A program made the position numbers and the translations under genes. A stretch of 64,000 nt of DNA from Candidatus Thorarchaeota archaeon (GTDB lineage Archaea > Asgardarchaeota > Thorarchaeia > Thorarchaeales > Thorarchaeaceae): NCBI GenBank assembly GCA_963726195.1, contig CAVSBO010000003.1, positions 224,001 to 288,000 on the forward strand, written 5' to 3'. Positions 54,475 to 61,475 of the stretch are shown here, in pieces. The notes below the pieces were generated by a model, which ran no database searches, was not told the origin of the DNA, and saw only the letters and a list, made by a program, of their open reading frames with translations. The number at the start of each line of letters is the position of its first letter. The first letter of the stretch is position 1.

Positions 54475-55359
54475 TCAGAAGCCCATTCTGTTCAGTTCGC
54501 GTTCAAGGAAAGCCTTGGTTTGAGTGACATTGTTCCACCGCTCAGCGAAGTTCTCAGGGCTGATGCGCTGCTCCCTGTACATCGTCTCCAAGTCGGCAAG
54601 CTCGTTGTCATTCTCTGCAAGGCGGTCCTTGTACATTCGAACAATCAGCGCGGCATTTGCTTGCTCCGATTCGCTTGGTTTTTCAACCGATATTATGCGG
54701 CCGTCCATGATTCTGAATATTCTATCGGTTCTCCGCGCAACTGACGGATCGTGAGTGACAATCACGATCGTCTTGCCCATCTCTTTGTTCACCTTGGTCA
54801 GGAACTGGACAATTTTGGCTGAGGTCTCAGTATCTAGGTCACCTGTAGGTTCATCGCATATCAGTACGGGTGGGTCATTTGCGAGTGCTGAAGCAATGGC
54901 GACCCTCTGCTTCTCTCCTCCGCTGAGTTCGTCGGGCTTATGGTTCATCCTCAACGACAAGCCAACTGTATCGAGAAGCTCAGTAGTCCTCCTTTTTCTC
55001 GCATCACCGGGCGTCTTGAGTGATAGCATCGGAAGCTCTACGTTCTCATAGGCGGTCAAGGTGGGAATCAAGTTCAGAGTCTGAAAGATGTGGCCAACCA
55101 CTTTTTGCCTCAGTAATCCCAGTTCCGCAGAGGTTGCATTGGTTATTTCTTTGCCCGCGACCCATGTCTTCCCAGCTGTCGCGTGCGTCAGTCCTCCGAT
55201 GACATTTAGCAAAGATGTCTTGCCCGACCCGGAAGGACCAACAATCGAGACCATTTCTCCTTGTTCGATCTTGATGGACAGACCTCTTAGCGCTTGCACT
55301 TCGACGCTTCCCAGTTTGTATACCTTAACCAAGTCCTCAGACTGAATGTAGCTAACCAT
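54475..55359 (-). CDS. LolD/MacB-type ABC ATPase with C-terminal coiled-coil extension
   Basis: GPSGSGKT, LSGGEKQRVAIA, DEPTGDLD, VTHD. Confidence 0.93.
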   Translation of the reverse strand: MVSYIQSEDLVKVYKLGSVEVQALRGLSIKIEQGEMVSIVGPSGSGKTSLLNVIGGLTHATAGKTWVAGKEITNATSAELGLLRQKVVGHIFQTLNLIPTLTAYENVELPMLSLKTPGDARKRRTTELLDTVGLSLRMNHKPDELSGGEKQRVAIASALANDPPVLICDEPTGDLDTETSAKIVQFLTKVNKEMGKTIVIVTHDPSVARRTDRIFRIMDGRIISVEKPSESEQANAALIVRMYKDRLAENDNELADLETMYREQRISPENFAERWNNVTQTKAFLERELNRMGF

Positions 55360-55371
55360 AATTACCACCTT

Positions 55372-58140
55372 CTACTCACGAATCGAGTTTATTCTCTCTT
55401 CCGTAACACGCGAGGTCATCACAACTGGTATCAAAGCAGCGATGACCACTATCAATACGATCCCAGTCATGGCGAGAATTGACAATGGTGTGAAGACCAT
55501 TCTAGGACGTACGAGTTCTTGGGTGCTTTGGCTTGTGTTAGAGATGTTTCCGAAAAGCTGAATGAAGCCTGTTGCCACACCAAGTATGAGAGAGAACAAG
55601 ACCATGACCATAACTTCTGCAGTGAGAGCCTTTAGAATCTGACCGCGGGTAAGACCTCTTACGCTCAGAAGCGTCGTCTCCTGTTCCTTCTCCTTCAACG
55701 TGAGACCTACGACAAGACCAGTGCCCACCACCGCGAGAACCCCTGCGAAGATGATACCAAGCCACCGAGCACGGGTTCCACCCACTTGGTAGCTATTGGT
55801 CTGAGCCGCTTTCAGTCTCGACGTCAGCGAGTCTGTGCTGGTTGCTTGAGGCAACGCTGAAGATATCTGCTTCTCGATAACAGTTCCATTAGTACCCGGG
55901 GTAGTCTTGATCAGAATCCAACCATTTGAGACGCTAACGAGGCTTGCATTGTTCAAGAAATCTACTGGAACATAGGATGGGTAAGTACCTCCAAAGGCGA
56001 ACTGTCCTAGGATTTCCTCGAACGGGCTCGCGTAGCCGACAAGACCGACTATGACAAGTCTGTGTGCTGTGCTCTGGCCTGGGCCGCGAAGAGCTATGCT
56101 ATTCCCAATATGAAGCTGCAGTTGACGAGCAACAGCTATGGATAGGATGATTTTCTCACCGGTGAAGTTGGAAAGGATTCGATTGATCGAAGCCCCTGTG
56201 AACCATGTAGTCTCATAGAATGCTGCGCGAGACCAGTTTTCAGGTGCTATTCCTCGAACTTCCAGAGCTCCTCTTGTGCTACTCATTGTGATTCTATATT
56301 CGATTGTCGACTCATTCACCTGAGCGATGGAACTCACGGTCTGGCTTACCAAGGACATATTGGCTCCCGGATTGAATGTTGCACTAACATCAGAGCCAAC
56401 TTCGTAGAGGCTGGTCCGCTCCAGTGTGTCCTGCTCGGTAAACATGTTTCCAACGCTAGAGAGGCCGTATGATACGATAAGCGACACGACGAAGACCAAT
56501 GCAGCATTTCTTGCCGGATGACGCGTGACGTTTCGAGTTGCAAGATGCCCAAATGCGCCAAAGAATCTCGAGCCTACATTCACGACGCCCTCCTGGAACT
56601 TCTGTGACCCTCTCAGTAGTATTTTTGTTGCACCATAGAGAAACATGATTGGTCCAACATAGTTTAGAAAAGCATCGATTGGGGTCCACAATGCCACTGC
56701 TATTAGCAAGATGAAATTGCTGCTCAATGCGGACGATAGCACGGTGCTCATATTGATTCCCAAGGCCCAGACGATCAGCTTGTAGGTTCCAAGAAACAAC
56801 GCAATGGAGGGGAGCAGCTTCTTGTACTCCCTCTGTTCCTCTACGTAGACATACTGCTTGAGGCTGTCGAGAGGGTCAAGTTTCGCAGCCCTGTCGGCAG
56901 GGCCTCTTACAGACCACACAGCCATTATGACTGCGAAAGCCATGACAACAACGATGTTTACCGTGCTGCCAGCTAGAATCACAGGCAAGGACGCGAGGCT
57001 GGCTCCCACCAAGAGAAATGCTACTAAGGTACCGCCGATTAGGCCGACGAAACCCCCAATTAGACCGATTATCGCGCCCTCAAACATCAGCATCCTCTTG
57101 ATTGCCTTCGGGCCATATCCCTTTGTCTGCAGAAGACCGAACTCCCTTCTCCGCAGATTGTAGCTCACATCACTGAGCATTGTCGAAGAGTACCATGACA
57201 TGAAGATGATTGGTGCTGCAAGAGAAACGAATGACAACACAAGTAATGATGCTTGCAGTGAAAGCGTTGACAGAGTTATCCCTAGTAGGTTTGTAACCTG
57301 GGTATTGTACGCGGCTGTCCTGTCTGAAATCTTCGCCAGAGCATTTGAGACGCTAGTCGACGAGCCACCAATGTCATAGGGATTCACAAGCATATTCCTG
57401 TTCAGCTGGCAGTAAAAGCCACATTCAACGGCGAGCTGGGTCACGTTCTGATGACTGGAGAACCAGTTGATGAGTGGGCCAATCGTAGAATTCCAGTCGA
57501 CAAGCAGAATGTCGTACTTACGCCAGTCGCCAAGGGGGATTTGGATGAAGCCAAGACTCAGGTATCTCTGTGGATTGAGCAGTTGAGCTGTCCTCGGAGG
57601 AATGTCAACGAAGCCGGCAACCGTCAGATTCACATAAACCGTGGTTGTGAAAGGAAACTTGTTGGTGATAGCTTTCACGGGAACCTTGAGTATCTGCCCC
57701 GTGGACAGGTATGATGCGTTCACTGAACTCGCAACAACATATGTTTGGTTTGCACCGAGAGCGAGCGTCCCATTCAGGTGAGTTACTGTGTTCCAAGCTG
57801 TGGTATTAGGCTCCATTCCCACAATGTCGAAGGTCTGTCTGGCGGTCGTATTGTACTGATAAGAAATCTTAGCATATCGATCCGCATGAACTACTTCGGG
57901 CTGGCTTTCCAACGTTGTGCGAAGATCCGCAAATTGCTTCCCTGACCAAGTCATGTTGTTTGCCTGTATTCGTGCGTCATAGTCAAGGCCCGCTAGAGCA
58001 TTGTCGACTGCGTCTTTGGAGACCATATCAGCGGACACTATCATGCTCGCAAAGAATGTGGTAGCAATCAGGACACCAATCGTAAGTGCCAGAAAAAGGC
58101 GATATCCCCGCAAGACTCTCTTGAGTGCATACCAAAACAT
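55372..58140 (-). CDS. FtsX/MacB-like ABC permease (duplicated, with large extracellular domains)
   Basis: RRREFGLLQTKG and LLSVRG motifs, two 4-TM bundles, many NxS/T sequons. Confidence 0.88.
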   Translation of the reverse strand: MFWYALKRVLRGYRLFLALTIGVLIATTFFASMIVSADMVSKDAVDNALAGLDYDARIQANNMTWSGKQFADLRTTLESQPEVVHADRYAKISYQYNTTARQTFDIVGMEPNTTAWNTVTHLNGTLALGANQTYVVASSVNASYLSTGQILKVPVKAITNKFPFTTTVYVNLTVAGFVDIPPRTAQLLNPQRYLSLGFIQIPLGDWRKYDILLVDWNSTIGPLINWFSSHQNVTQLAVECGFYCQLNRNMLVNPYDIGGSSTSVSNALAKISDRTAAYNTQVTNLLGITLSTLSLQASLLVLSFVSLAAPIIFMSWYSSTMLSDVSYNLRRREFGLLQTKGYGPKAIKRMLMFEGAIIGLIGGFVGLIGGTLVAFLLVGASLASLPVILAGSTVNIVVVMAFAVIMAVWSVRGPADRAAKLDPLDSLKQYVYVEEQREYKKLLPSIALFLGTYKLIVWALGINMSTVLSSALSSNFILLIAVALWTPIDAFLNYVGPIMFLYGATKILLRGSQKFQEGVVNVGSRFFGAFGHLATRNVTRHPARNAALVFVVSLIVSYGLSSVGNMFTEQDTLERTSLYEVGSDVSATFNPGANMSLVSQTVSSIAQVNESTIEYRITMSSTRGALEVRGIAPENWSRAAFYETTWFTGASINRILSNFTGEKIILSIAVARQLQLHIGNSIALRGPGQSTAHRLVIVGLVGYASPFEEILGQFAFGGTYPSYVPVDFLNNASLVSVSNGWILIKTTPGTNGTVIEKQISSALPQATSTDSLTSRLKAAQTNSYQVGGTRARWLGIIFAGVLAVVGTGLVVGLTLKEKEQETTLLSVRGLTRGQILKALTAEVMVMVLFSLILGVATGFIQLFGNISNTSQSTQELVRPRMVFTPLSILAMTGIVLIVVIAALIPVVMTSRVTEERINSIRE

Positions 58141-58260: not shown

Positions 58261-58833
58261 TCATTGCAGTCCCTGTCTGGTTCGCCTTCGGTCATAGATC
58301 ATCGCCACAACAGTGACTACAGCCATGAGGACAAGGCTCGAGCCAACCACAATAGGGGTCGTAACCGACGGGTCCTTTGTTGTTGTGGTCCTTTGTGTGA
58401 GATCAGCAGTCCGCGAGTAGCTAGTTGCTGTATTGTTGGCCATGTCAAATGCAATTATGTATAGAGTATAGGTTGCATTGACAGCAAGACCAGGTACGTC
58501 AGCCATGTAGAGAGAGCCGTTGAACGCGAGAGGGTACGAAGACCGCTGTCCATTATCACCGTGCACTGACAATGATACGTTACGAACTCCAGACTCTGTG
58601 TCGCTTACATTGGCCCAAGCCGAGAAAGACACTCCTTGCTCAACAGGCCCTTCGAGTCCCCACGCTGATATCTCCGGTCTTAGTGTGTCATTCGCTGCTA
58701 GGTTGATTGGCCCGAAAACATGCGACGGTGGTATCAACTTCAATCCCAAAAGAACAGAAGCTGTGCCCATTTCAGCAAGACCGCACACGGTCAGCATCAG
58801 AAGCAAGAGCACTTCACGGACTCGCGGTCTCAT
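58261..58833 (-). CDS. Membrane-anchored Ig-like surface protein
   Basis: Signal helix, DT..P.I, SD.ESGV, AFD.A.N, Thr-rich linker, C-terminal TM followed by RRR. Confidence 0.75.
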   Translation of the reverse strand: MRPRVREVLLLLMLTVCGLAEMGTASVLLGLKLIPPSHVFGPINLAANDTLRPEISAWGLEGPVEQGVSFSAWANVSDTESGVRNVSLSVHGDNGQRSSYPLAFNGSLYMADVPGLAVNATYTLYIIAFDMANNTATSYSRTADLTQRTTTTKDPSVTTPIVVGSSLVLMAVVTVVAMIYDRRRTRQGLQ

Positions 58834-58884
58834 GCCAGCAGCGTCTGTTCTGTGTCCTTAACTAAGTAGCTATTAGCGAAAGCA

Positions 58885-59045
58885 GAAAGGGTGGGCGCAG
58901 AGAAATGGGCAACATGTCGCATGCCGCGCCACCACCTGTAATTTTGTGCGACAAGTTCCGACCTTCCTATTCTGAGGAAGCCGCAAGACTGTCACCGCAC
59001 GCCAAAGTGACCAGTCGACCCACTTTTTCGTCTCTGCGCCCTTGT
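58885..59045 (-). ncRNA. Candidate structured RNA (four-way junction), family unknown
   Basis: 11-bp perfect closing stem 58893-58903/59031-59041 enclosing an inner stem and three hairpins; pyrimidine tract 3' on the - strand. Confidence 0.4.
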
Positions 59046-59465
59046 TCTTGCCGATGGCCAGTACCTGTGGTCAGAGATATGTCCTTCGGTTCCCATGAGT
59101 GCTGGTCGTCGTGAGATGAGTGCCCTCCACTCTCAAGAGAGTGGTGGCGTCGAGCATTGTGTGATATTGGGCGGGAGTGCATAAAAAGGTGTGTTGGCTG
59201 ACTACTGCAGGGGCTCTTCATGGTGCCCATTTAGAGATGGCCTGCAATAGGAGGACATCTCTACCGGCTGCTTGGTAGGATTGAATGATATTCTTTCCAT
59301 AGAGGAGCGTACTAATGATGTTGAAACGCAAAGCTGAAAAGAAGCCGTTGGCTGCGGTTCTCTAGCAATCGCCGCGCTAAAGTCACAAAGACATAAATAG
59401 CAGGCACTTGGCACTGATGGTAAGTGTCTTTGCCGAGCTCGGCATGGACGCAAGGAGAATGAGCA

Positions 59466-59807
59466 ATGGCAGGATACAAGCACCCTTGTCGCTATTGTGA
59501 ACAATTGATTCCCGGCGACTCTAAAGTCTGCCCAATGTGCGGAGCAGTAAATCCACTTGGGCCGTTGAGATGCCCAAAATGCAAGTCTCCAATCGAGGCA
59601 GGCTGGGTGAAGTGCAACAATTGCGGGTTGTCATTGTCAATCACGTGCCCGAAATGCCATAAGGAGACTTTCTTTGCTGACTATTGCATGAACTGTAAGG
59701 CTCCTTTGGTCGTTATATGCCCTAAGTGCAAGACACCGACACCACCACTCGACAAGTGTCTGAAGTGCGGTAACCCGCTTAAAGTGGAGGCGAAAAAGAA
59801 GAAATGA
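59466..59807 (+). CDS. Multi zinc-ribbon (DZANK-like) protein
   Basis: Eight CxxC pairs; AAGGAG SD. Confidence 0.85.
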   Translation: MAGYKHPCRYCEQLIPGDSKVCPMCGAVNPLGPLRCPKCKSPIEAGWVKCNNCGLSLSITCPKCHKETFFADYCMNCKAPLVVICPKCKTPTPPLDKCLKCGNPLKVEAKKKK

Positions 59808-60467
59808 GTCTGAAAGCATTCACAAGGAACTACGCTGACAACAGCACCGAAGCAGGCTTCGAGTTCACGTTTTTCTGCGATCTATGCAATGACGGATTCA
59901 AGTCCGCATTCATAGAATCGAAGAGCCACAAGAAAGCTGGGCTTCTCAGTGGAATTGGAAGAGCAGCCTACGCGGGCGCGTCCTTGGCAGGACACGGTTC
60001 AGTCGGATGGGCCGCCAGCGAGGGCTCCAGCATCTTGTCACAGAAATTCGAGGGGATGTCTCCTCAGTGGCACAAGGAGCACGAGGCAGCTTTCGAGCAG
60101 GCTTCGAATGAAGCAAAACAGCATTTCAAGCGCTGTCCCAAGTGCAAGAAGTACGTCTGTGAAAATGACTGGAATGAAGAAGAAGGGCTCTGTGTCGATG
60201 ATGCTCCCCGCGAAGCAGTTGAGGTCGCAACTGCCAAAGGAAAGAAGATGGTCAAGGACATAGAGGCAGAGGCAGAAAACACCCAAGTCTTCAAGGGGAA
60301 GATCGAGAACCAAGCAGACAATATGCCCCAAGTGTGGAAAGCCTGCGGGAACAGGCAAATTCTGCAACAACTGTGGTGCGCCCCTCACTGTAGCAAAATG
60401 CAAGAAGTGCGGAGCAACCAATGTTGCCGGTACCAAGTTCTGCTCCGAGTGTGGAGCAAAGCTGTAG
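59804..60467 (+). CDS. Zinc-ribbon protein (frameshift near 60310)
   Basis: FFCDLC, CPKCKKYVC; the shifted frame gives CPKCG..KFCNNCG..CKKCG..KFCSECG with stop at 60467. Confidence 0.8.
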
Positions 60468-60719
60468 TACAACCTAAAGCTGAAGTAGAATCGCGCTGGG
60501 TTCAGATTGGATTCTATTTCAGCGCTTCCTTCTTTTATATTGGAACTGATTGCAGTTGACTAGTTTCAGTCCTATTCTGGCTGAGTATTGCGAAACCCGA
60601 GGCATGGATCTGAGATTAGTTCGAGCCAGAGACAGGCTCTCTGGACCAACCATCGCTCTAGGACAAACCTTGAGCCCTCTTCCGATAGGAACATTAGCGC
60701 ACTCTCGAAGTCTGCTCAC

Positions 60720-61475
60720 ATGAAACCCAAGAGAGCAGTTGTCCGCCCGCCAAGCAGCGCCTTTCCTAGATGCATCTCTTCTCATCCTCTTCGCAACACG
60801 ATTGCTGTTGAAAAAGCGCTGAAGCAGCATCAAACCTACTGCGACACGCTCAGGGAACTGGGTCTCGAACTGATAGTCATGAACCAAGAAGAGAAGTATC
60901 CGGATTCCTGTTTCGTTGAGGATACAGCGGTCATTCACAACGGCAAGGCACTCGTGGCAAGAATGGCTCGACCAAGTCGACAGGGAGAAGAGGACAGTGT
61001 GGAAGCCCTGCTGGGCCAGTACTTGCAGGTTCGTCGAGTGACCAAGCCCGGAACGCTTGAGGGAGGTGATGTAATCCATCTACCCAACAAGCTCATGACC
61101 GGTGTCTCGCAAAGAACCAACATAGACGGAGTGTTCCAGATGAGGGACTGGCTTGAAGTGGAAGTAATCGGAATCCGCGACCCGTACATCGTCCATCTGA
61201 AGAGTCATGCAACATTTCTCGGCATGAAGACCATGATATGCAGGAGAGCCTATCGAGACCATCCGGCACTTGAGAAGTACAATCTGATCGTGCTCGACGA
61301 TGAGGACAGCTACGCTGCGAATACGCTCACAATTGATGAAGTCGTGCTCATGCCTGCAGGGTTTGATAGGGCTGCATCACAGGTCCGAGAAGCCGGGTAT
61401 GAAGTGCTGCCGATTGATGTGAGTGAGTTCGAGAAGTGTGAAGGGGCTCTGACATGTCTGTCGATTCTCTTCTAA
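60720..61475 (+). CDS. Dimethylargininase (DDAH) / amidinotransferase-family hydrolase
   Basis: PDSCFVEDTAV, SRQGE, LEGGD, HLKS, SEFEK.EGALTC. Confidence 0.9.
   Translation: MKPKRAVVRPPSSAFPRCISSHPLRNTIAVEKALKQHQTYCDTLRELGLELIVMNQEEKYPDSCFVEDTAVIHNGKALVARMARPSRQGEEDSVEALLGQYLQVRRVTKPGTLEGGDVIHLPNKLMTGVSQRTNIDGVFQMRDWLEVEVIGIRDPYIVHLKSHATFLGMKTMICRRAYRDHPALEKYNLIVLDDEDSYAANTLTIDEVVLMPAGFDRAASQVREAGYEVLPIDVSEFEKCEGALTCLSILF

Follow-up and report, generated by a model that had tools for sequence, protein, structure and literature searches.

A structured RNA of a new family encoded upstream of a surface-protein/ABC-exporter operon in one family of Thorarchaeota

We studied an intergenic element in a 64,000-nt stretch of a Candidatus Thorarchaeota genome (the whole stretch is called the window hereafter, and the genome G000). 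The element is a 152-nt folded RNA encoded on the minus strand, running from position 59041 down to position 58890 of the window (G000:C3:282890-283041); its parts and those of the genes it precedes are collected in Table 1. As a first-pass annotation made from the sequence had proposed, the RNA lies upstream of a surface-protein/ABC-exporter operon; the two are co-oriented, and the gene for the 190-aa protein is the next one. The ~140-aa extracellular domain of this protein has no Pfam match and recurs in many Thorarchaeota proteins of 600-2400 aa (paralogues are found, for example, at G000:C3:371547, 402197 and 655228), and it may represent an unnamed surface-protein domain family. On the other side, divergent from the RNA, positions 59466-60559 of the plus strand encode a double-zinc-ribbon protein of 113 aa and, overlapping it, a Cys-rich protein of 251 aa that has no Pfam match, and a DDAH/arginine-deiminase-like gene follows the latter at 60588-61475; none of these three genes shows synteny with the RNA in relatives.

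Table 1. Features of the RNA gene and of the downstream operon, in window positions
Feature	Position	Strand	Remarks
RNA gene, GGGCGCAG...CUGCGCCCACC	58890..59041	-	152 nt; covariance-model match, model positions 1-154, 151 bits
BRE/TATA-like promoter of the RNA gene (CGAAGG ACATATCT)	59075..59088	-	33 nt before G1
P1, 5′ strand (GGGCGCAG)	59034..59041	-	pairs with 58893-58900; G1-G3 and C4 nearly invariant
P1/P2 internal loop, 5′ side	59023..59033	-	3′ side at 58901-58905; from alignments
P2, 5′ strand UGGGU	59018..59022	-	pairs with 58906-58910 (GCCCA); 5 pairs, 4 with double changes
P3 hairpin, 10 bp	58987..59016	-	double changes in 8/10 pairs
P4 hairpin, 2 + 5 bp	58959..58983	-	double changes in 5/5 upper pairs
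P5 hairpin, ~10 bp	58911..58957	-	double changes in 8/9 pairs
P1, 3′ strand (CUGCGCCC)	58893..58900	-	RNAalifold and 33-sequence alignment
Single-stranded 3′ ACC	58890..58892	-	invariant
Pyrimidine-rich trailer (CTTTCTGCTTTC)	58878..58889	-	likely archaeal termination tract
TATA-like box (CTTAGTTAAGG) of the downstream operon	58856..58866	-	23 nt before ATG
190-aa protein gene	58261..58833	-	hydrophobic N- and C-termini; no Pfam match
FtsX-type permease (922 aa) and ABC ATPase (297 aa)	54475..58140	-	PF02687, PF00005

The RNA is laid out as a terminal helix (P1) followed by the 3′ ACC, a variable internal loop, a second helix (P2) and a four-way junction that carries the hairpins P3, P4 and P5. 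Homologues are 147-164 nt long, except in genus g11, where they reach 188-218 nt. P1 has the consensus GGGCRCAG/CUGYGCCC, and four of its eight pairs are changed on both sides at least once in an alignment of 33 sequences, as in the replacement of a G-C by an A-U pair in 14 of them, while the fourth pair, C-G, becomes U-A or U·G in genus g11. The perfect terminal stem of the first-pass annotation is present as 11 bp in the window genome, of which 8 bp are conserved family-wide and three are extra; the inner stem and the three hairpins it described are likewise found, as P2 and as P3, P4 and P5. All 45 full-length homologues end in ACC, and the base that follows is C or T, never A, in every homologue for which the flank was displayed. 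The most variable part of the RNA, in both length and sequence, is the P1/P2 internal loop.

The hairpin loops differ in how they are conserved. Loop L3 (58997-59005, UUGGCGUGC in the window genome) has an invariant core, GGCGUGC, and its closing U·G pair is replaced by U-A at loci L158 and L288. The A-rich loop L4 (58969-58974, CAGAAU in the window genome) follows the consensus N-A-R-A-A-Y, measures 6 or 8 nt, and its triplet varies among CAA, CAG, AAG, GAG and AAA. The 27-nt loop L5 (58921-58947) carries CAAA...UAGG(UGG)UGGCGCGGCA, which in the window genome reads CAAA...UAGGUGGUGGCGCGGCA, and within it UAGG...UGGCGCGGC is invariant. In genus g11 one or two additional GC-rich hairpins are inserted inside L5, between UAGG(UGG) and UGGCGCGGC (loci L167 of G013 and L180 of G035, with RNAs of 188-218 nt), which indicates that L5 consists of two separate conserved strands; these natural insertion variants mark a solvent-exposed site in the fold.

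We evaluated the pairing on a MAFFT alignment of 33 distinct homologues that had been fitted to no structure beforehand. Standard pairs occupied 95.1% of the pair cells, compared with 33-44% when the 3′ partners were slid by one to three columns, and the covariation score was 0.528 against 0.08-0.11 in the same slid controls. Compensatory changes on both sides were found in 30 of the 42 pairs, and none of 500 shuffles reached any of the observed measures. Congruently, RNAalifold predicted 43 pairs from 20 sequences, 28 of them with compensatory changes. The minus-strand fold of the window element has an energy of −69.2 kcal/mol (z = −4.0), equalled by none of 200 shuffles, and the plus-strand fold has a z of −2.3. 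The element is a folded RNA far beyond chance, and both the comparison with shuffled sequences and the search for covariation suggested in the first-pass annotation came out in its favour. The suspicion that the RNA is made from the minus strand also held, since its frequent G-U pairs, among them the one closing L3, would turn into A-C on the opposite strand; the fold z-scores favour the same strand.

Next, we determined how widely the RNA occurs. When relatives were searched with BLAST, the element was recovered once in each of 34 genomes out of 36 from the same family, with an identity of 68-80%. A covariance model derived from 33 sequences and run with Infernal's stricter filters gave a single match in each of 24 of the 26 sampled genomes of this Thorarchaeota family (f1), at 81-151 bits, and none in 125 genomes from 26 other Asgard families under the same filters. 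In the sister family f2, FtsX homologues are present with no such RNA upstream. A metagenome scan with a 16-mer of L5 yielded one true homologue among the 120 matches listed, and a pattern scan of contigs returned mostly chance matches in GC-rich bacteria. The element is single-copy in G000, and this, together with the one match per genome in 24 relatives, rules out a MITE, which would be present in many copies with terminal inverted repeats and target-site duplications, or another dispersed repeat; this was one of the outcomes that had been named as refuting the first-pass proposal.

We then compared the RNA with known families. No family of Rfam 15 matched the window element at its gathering score, and at E ≤ 10 only noise far below the cut-offs was obtained from the surrounding 1 kb, from a 173-nt segment and from 16 homologous loci; ARAGORN found neither a tRNA nor a tmRNA in the window. 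The earlier statement that tRNA, 5S, SRP and RNase P signatures are lacking thus agrees with both searches, and the SRP, RNase P and 5S genes were located elsewhere in the genome. SRP RNA, which is about 300 nt long with Alu and S domains (RF01857), is encoded in full length at G000:C16:201353-201661 and bears no likeness to the element by eye. The archaeal RNase P RNA (RF00373, with conserved regions CR-I to CR-V) was found at G000:C11:57831-58171 with 154.9 bits. The 5S rRNA, a three-way junction of about 120 nt (RF00001), lies at G000:C18:17684-17803, and the element is a four-way junction. A tRNA has a 7-bp acceptor stem, D and T loops and a 7-nt anticodon loop (RF00005; RF01852 for tRNA-Sec); ARAGORN found none in the window, the 173-nt segment gave no match to these Rfam models even at E ≤ 10, and L4 has 6 or 8 nt. 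The genuine tRNA-Sec gene of G000 (anticodon TCA) lies at C13:134005-134095, and the organism therefore probably uses selenocysteine. Neither does the element fit tmRNA, which combines a tRNA-Ala-like domain bearing G3·U70 with a tag reading frame: ARAGORN reports none and the third pair is G-C in all 33 sequences.

Archaeal H/ACA sRNAs share part of this layout. In them, too, a large internal loop separates the lower from the upper stem and a single-stranded tail of 3 nt directly follows the lower stem, a combination known to resemble an acceptor stem with CCA. However, the tail of the RNA is ACC rather than ACA or ANA in 45 of 45 full-length homologues, the internal loop that would be the guide pocket is its least conserved part, the hairpins radiate from a four-way junction, and no K-turn or K-loop was seen by eye. 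A Y RNA of the YrlA type was rejected because a search of G000 (88.9% complete) revealed no Ro60 domain (TROVE, PF05731) and no Rfam Y RNA matched; a search for vault components had no match in G000 and none in the control genomes either. A T-box leader was set aside on the grounds that the L4 triplet varies while the neighbouring operon is constant and that RF00230 does not match, and the 6- or 8-nt size of L4 with its unconserved triplet excludes this loop as an anticodon or specifier. Searches for antisense targets of L3 and L5 in the same genome gave only chance-level matches of 11 out of 12 positions, one of them near a tRNA-Ala gene outside the rRNA operon. Full-text searches of the open literature found no description of the RNA. 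These results strongly support a new RNA family that is confined to a single Asgard family and resembles nothing in Rfam 15; it shares single features with tRNA, H/ACA sRNAs and the orphan RNAs of bacteria but does not qualify as any of these.

The sequences that flank the RNA suggest how it may be expressed. A box of the AAAG-nTATAA type lies 23-37 nt upstream of G1 in the homologues, a spacing that predicts a leader of about 0-14 nt, and in both type and distance the box matches those in front of the tRNA genes of G000; the promoter of the tRNA-Sec gene, for instance, carries AAAGGACATATGG. Trailers of the TTCTTC type follow the RNA in nearly all homologues, as they do the tRNA genes of G000. 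Moreover, nearly all of these tRNA genes encode the full CCA (ending in NCCA), whereas the RNA gene always ends in ACC. Because of its tRNA-like promoter and trailer and its ACC end, the gene looks like a stable-RNA gene whose product has an acceptor-stem-like terminus lacking only A76. Many tRNA genes of G000 contain introns, some at non-canonical positions. The flanking intergenic DNA shows no conservation in relatives. This holds for the stretch containing a Thr-rich 28-aa sORF (59071-59190, minus strand), and a leader-peptide attenuator built on it was rejected; the sORF probably lies outside the transcript, since the promoter of the RNA gene overlaps its end.

The downstream operon appears to have a promoter of its own. 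Boxes of the CTAATTAAGG type precede the first ATG of the 190-aa orthologue by 12-38 nt in other genomes, a distance that implies a leaderless or short-leadered operon mRNA. This TATA-like box is conserved between the window (58834-58870, minus strand) and the homologous loci, and in many genomes a motif ATGCGT(CAA) is present ~12-20 nt upstream of it; the motif could be a transcription-factor site of a leaderless envelope operon.

To a reader of the gene map, the arrangement of the RNA and the operon invites a second interpretation, namely that the RNA is a cis-acting leader, a riboswitch or attenuator. Here, transcription would read through a weak trailer into the operon, and a ligand or factor would decide whether P1 forms or whether L5 (GGUGG-CGC) pairs instead with the P1 3′ strand plus the ACC, thereby controlling termination directly after P1. 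Most genomes, from at least 13 genera, share the order and orientation of RNA and operon but not the gene upstream, a pattern that is also expected of a cis-regulator. About 20 genomes have a gap of 40-170 nt between the RNA and the 190-aa orthologue, and in the one genus that lacks the small gene the RNA is followed immediately by FtsX, which starts at +63 in one genome and at +104 in another. The complex fold with its invariant loops is what aptamers display, a T/C-rich tract begins within 3 nt of the GC-rich P1, and the complementarity of L5 to the P1 3′ strand and the ACC can be seen in the sequence, even in a noise alignment. The yybP-ykoY Mn2+ and NiCo aptamers are likewise multi-helix junctions upstream of transporter operons, and the UGGU within L5 is complementary to an ACCA end, as is the antiterminator bulge of T-boxes.

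Against this interpretation stands the conserved TATA-like box of the operon, which implies an mRNA with a short leader or none. The gene linkage is also broken in several genomes, where HicAB, a TyrRS-like gene, genes for other secreted proteins or a 3-kb insert lie between the RNA and the module, although most of the inserted genes are co-oriented with it. In G024, in G034 and at locus L083 the RNA is followed by a convergent gene, and in G013 the nearest 190-aa orthologue lies 13 kb off on the other strand; in these four cases, where the neighbour faces the RNA or the operon is found at a distance of 7-13 kb or on a different contig, the RNA is fully conserved. Conversely, G027 retains FtsX and the ABC gene with the small gene reduced to a stop-containing remnant and the RNA absent. 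The nearly invariant outer part of P1 and the invariant, exact ACC end are unusual for the P1 stem of an aptamer, promoter and trailer are of the stable-RNA-gene type, and no Rfam model of the yybP-ykoY, NiCo or T-box classes matches; unlike a T-box specifier, the L4 triplet is not kept as one codon or anticodon. With its location in a 5′-UTR contradicted by the operon's own box, the inserted genes and the RNAs that stay intact beside a convergent gene or far from the operon, the RNA is probably not a simple leader, and we regard a cis-acting role as rather unlikely. Among the insertions, the HicB-like/HicA-like toxin-antitoxin pair at +50..+489 of locus L008 (G025), between the RNA and the surface-protein gene, and the TyrRS-like gene of G010 occupy the same spot, and the interval behind the RNA seems to be a hot spot for insertions.

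The explanation that we favour as the probable one is a structured sRNA that belongs to a new family, is encoded by a stand-alone gene with tRNA-gene-like ends and acts in trans; its own promoter and its tRNA-gene-like trailer argue for a stand-alone gene. According to this proposal, the RNA would be transcribed as its own unit from the BRE/TATA promoter and would end at the pyrimidine-rich trailer. As the helix that starts with GGGC and the A-C-C resemble an acceptor stem lacking only A76, the ends would probably be trimmed by the tRNA-processing machinery, with RNase P acting at the 5′ end and 3′ trimming occurring with or without addition of the A. A counterpoint is that tRNA enzymes measure the 12-bp stack of acceptor and T stems, whereas P1 has 8 bp and then a loop. 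The arms would probably be locked by a putative contact between CGUGC of L3 and GCGCG of L5, and L4 would probably dock by A-minor contacts. The mature RNA would act in trans, most likely bound to protein. In relation to the alternatives raised by the first-pass annotation (a novel sRNA, a riboswitch or attenuator, or a ribozyme), the novel structured RNA is upheld by covariation, conservation and the lack of an Rfam match, the sRNA is now favoured in its stand-alone form, and the riboswitch or attenuator is weakened.

The contacts invoked in this proposal can be read from complementary segments. CGUGC of L3 can form 5 bp with GCGCG of L5, which would join the first and the third arms. Similarly, GGU or GGUGG of L5 can pair with the ACC tail or with CCACC, and GGUGG-CGC of L5 is complementary to the P1 3′ strand; L4, with its N-A-R-A-A-Y consensus, looks like an A-minor docking loop. 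The bases of all these putative contacts are invariant. In G035, however, the GGUGG of L5 is replaced or buried, which weakens the contacts that need it.

The RNA may be functionally linked to the envelope exporter next to it. The function of the RNA may be tied to the module formed by the small surface protein, the FtsX permease and the ABC ATPase, with a linkage that would be ancestral. In two genomes the RNA, the small gene and the FtsX orthologue are missing together; as these genes are adjacent, their joint loss may be a single deletion and hence provides no independent evidence of such a link. In this respect the RNA can be compared with OLE, raiA and similar orphan non-coding RNAs of bacteria, which are also lineage-restricted and combine strong covariation with invariant loops; OLE, moreover, shows a conserved adjacency to genes for membrane proteins, in its case oapA. 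There is, however, no homology with OLE or raiA in sequence or structure, and the RNA is archaeal and much smaller than OLE.

A bolder version, which we consider unlikely, would make the RNA an innovation of the Asgard lineage, a tRNA mimic of unusual size that is processed by RNase P and the CCA-adding enzyme and serves as the RNA subunit of a new RNP coupled to a MacB/FtsX-type envelope exporter, or else the first Asgard-specific class of riboswitch-like RNAs, sensing by strand exchange between P1 and L5.

The RNA might also be a tRNA-like adaptor or mimic that receives the terminal A and is aminoacylated, or is bound by a tRNA-recognising enzyme, in a non-ribosomal role such as the modification of an envelope component that the neighbouring exporter handles. 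Like tRNA and the tRNA-like module of YrlA, it has a terminal helix that starts with GGGC and is continued by a single-stranded A-C-C (GGGC...GCCC and A-C-C taken together form an acceptor-like terminus, and ACC ends in general can be completed by the CCA-adding enzyme), and its four-way junction with three hairpins gives a cloverleaf-like topology in which the loops of the first and third hairpins could pair, as the D and T loops do in tRNA. The promoter and the pyrimidine trailer are those of the tRNA genes of this genome. However, the RNA is twice the size of a tRNA, P1 is set off from the junction by P2 and the large variable loop, and neither D- nor T-loop signatures nor a 7-nt anticodon loop are present, in line with the lack of matches to ARAGORN and to the tRNA models of Rfam. 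Nearly all genuine tRNA genes in G000 encode the full CCA and the RNA gene never encodes the terminal A, there is no G3·U70 or other recognisable identity set, and the likeness to YrlA, a Y RNA, stops at the Ro60 (TROVE) gene, which was not found in G000. Taken together, we judge a tRNA mimic very unlikely. A self-cleaving or otherwise catalytic RNA is the most improbable of all, for, although the invariant loops and junction residues in a compact multi-helix fold would suit a ribozyme, no ribozyme family of Rfam matched and the single-copy gene has no association with repeats, introns or mobile elements.

No known organisms are more closely related to eukaryotes than the Asgard archaea, whose repertoire of non-coding RNAs is, to our knowledge, almost unexplored beyond rRNA, tRNA, SRP RNA and RNase P RNA. 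The covariance model provides a ready-made alignment for annotating Thorarchaeota genomes, and it defines a target whose structure can be probed, whose partners can be pulled down and which can be sought in metatranscriptomes. If its tRNA-like processing or its tie to the envelope exporter proves true, the RNA would represent a new kind of archaeal RNP or regulator.
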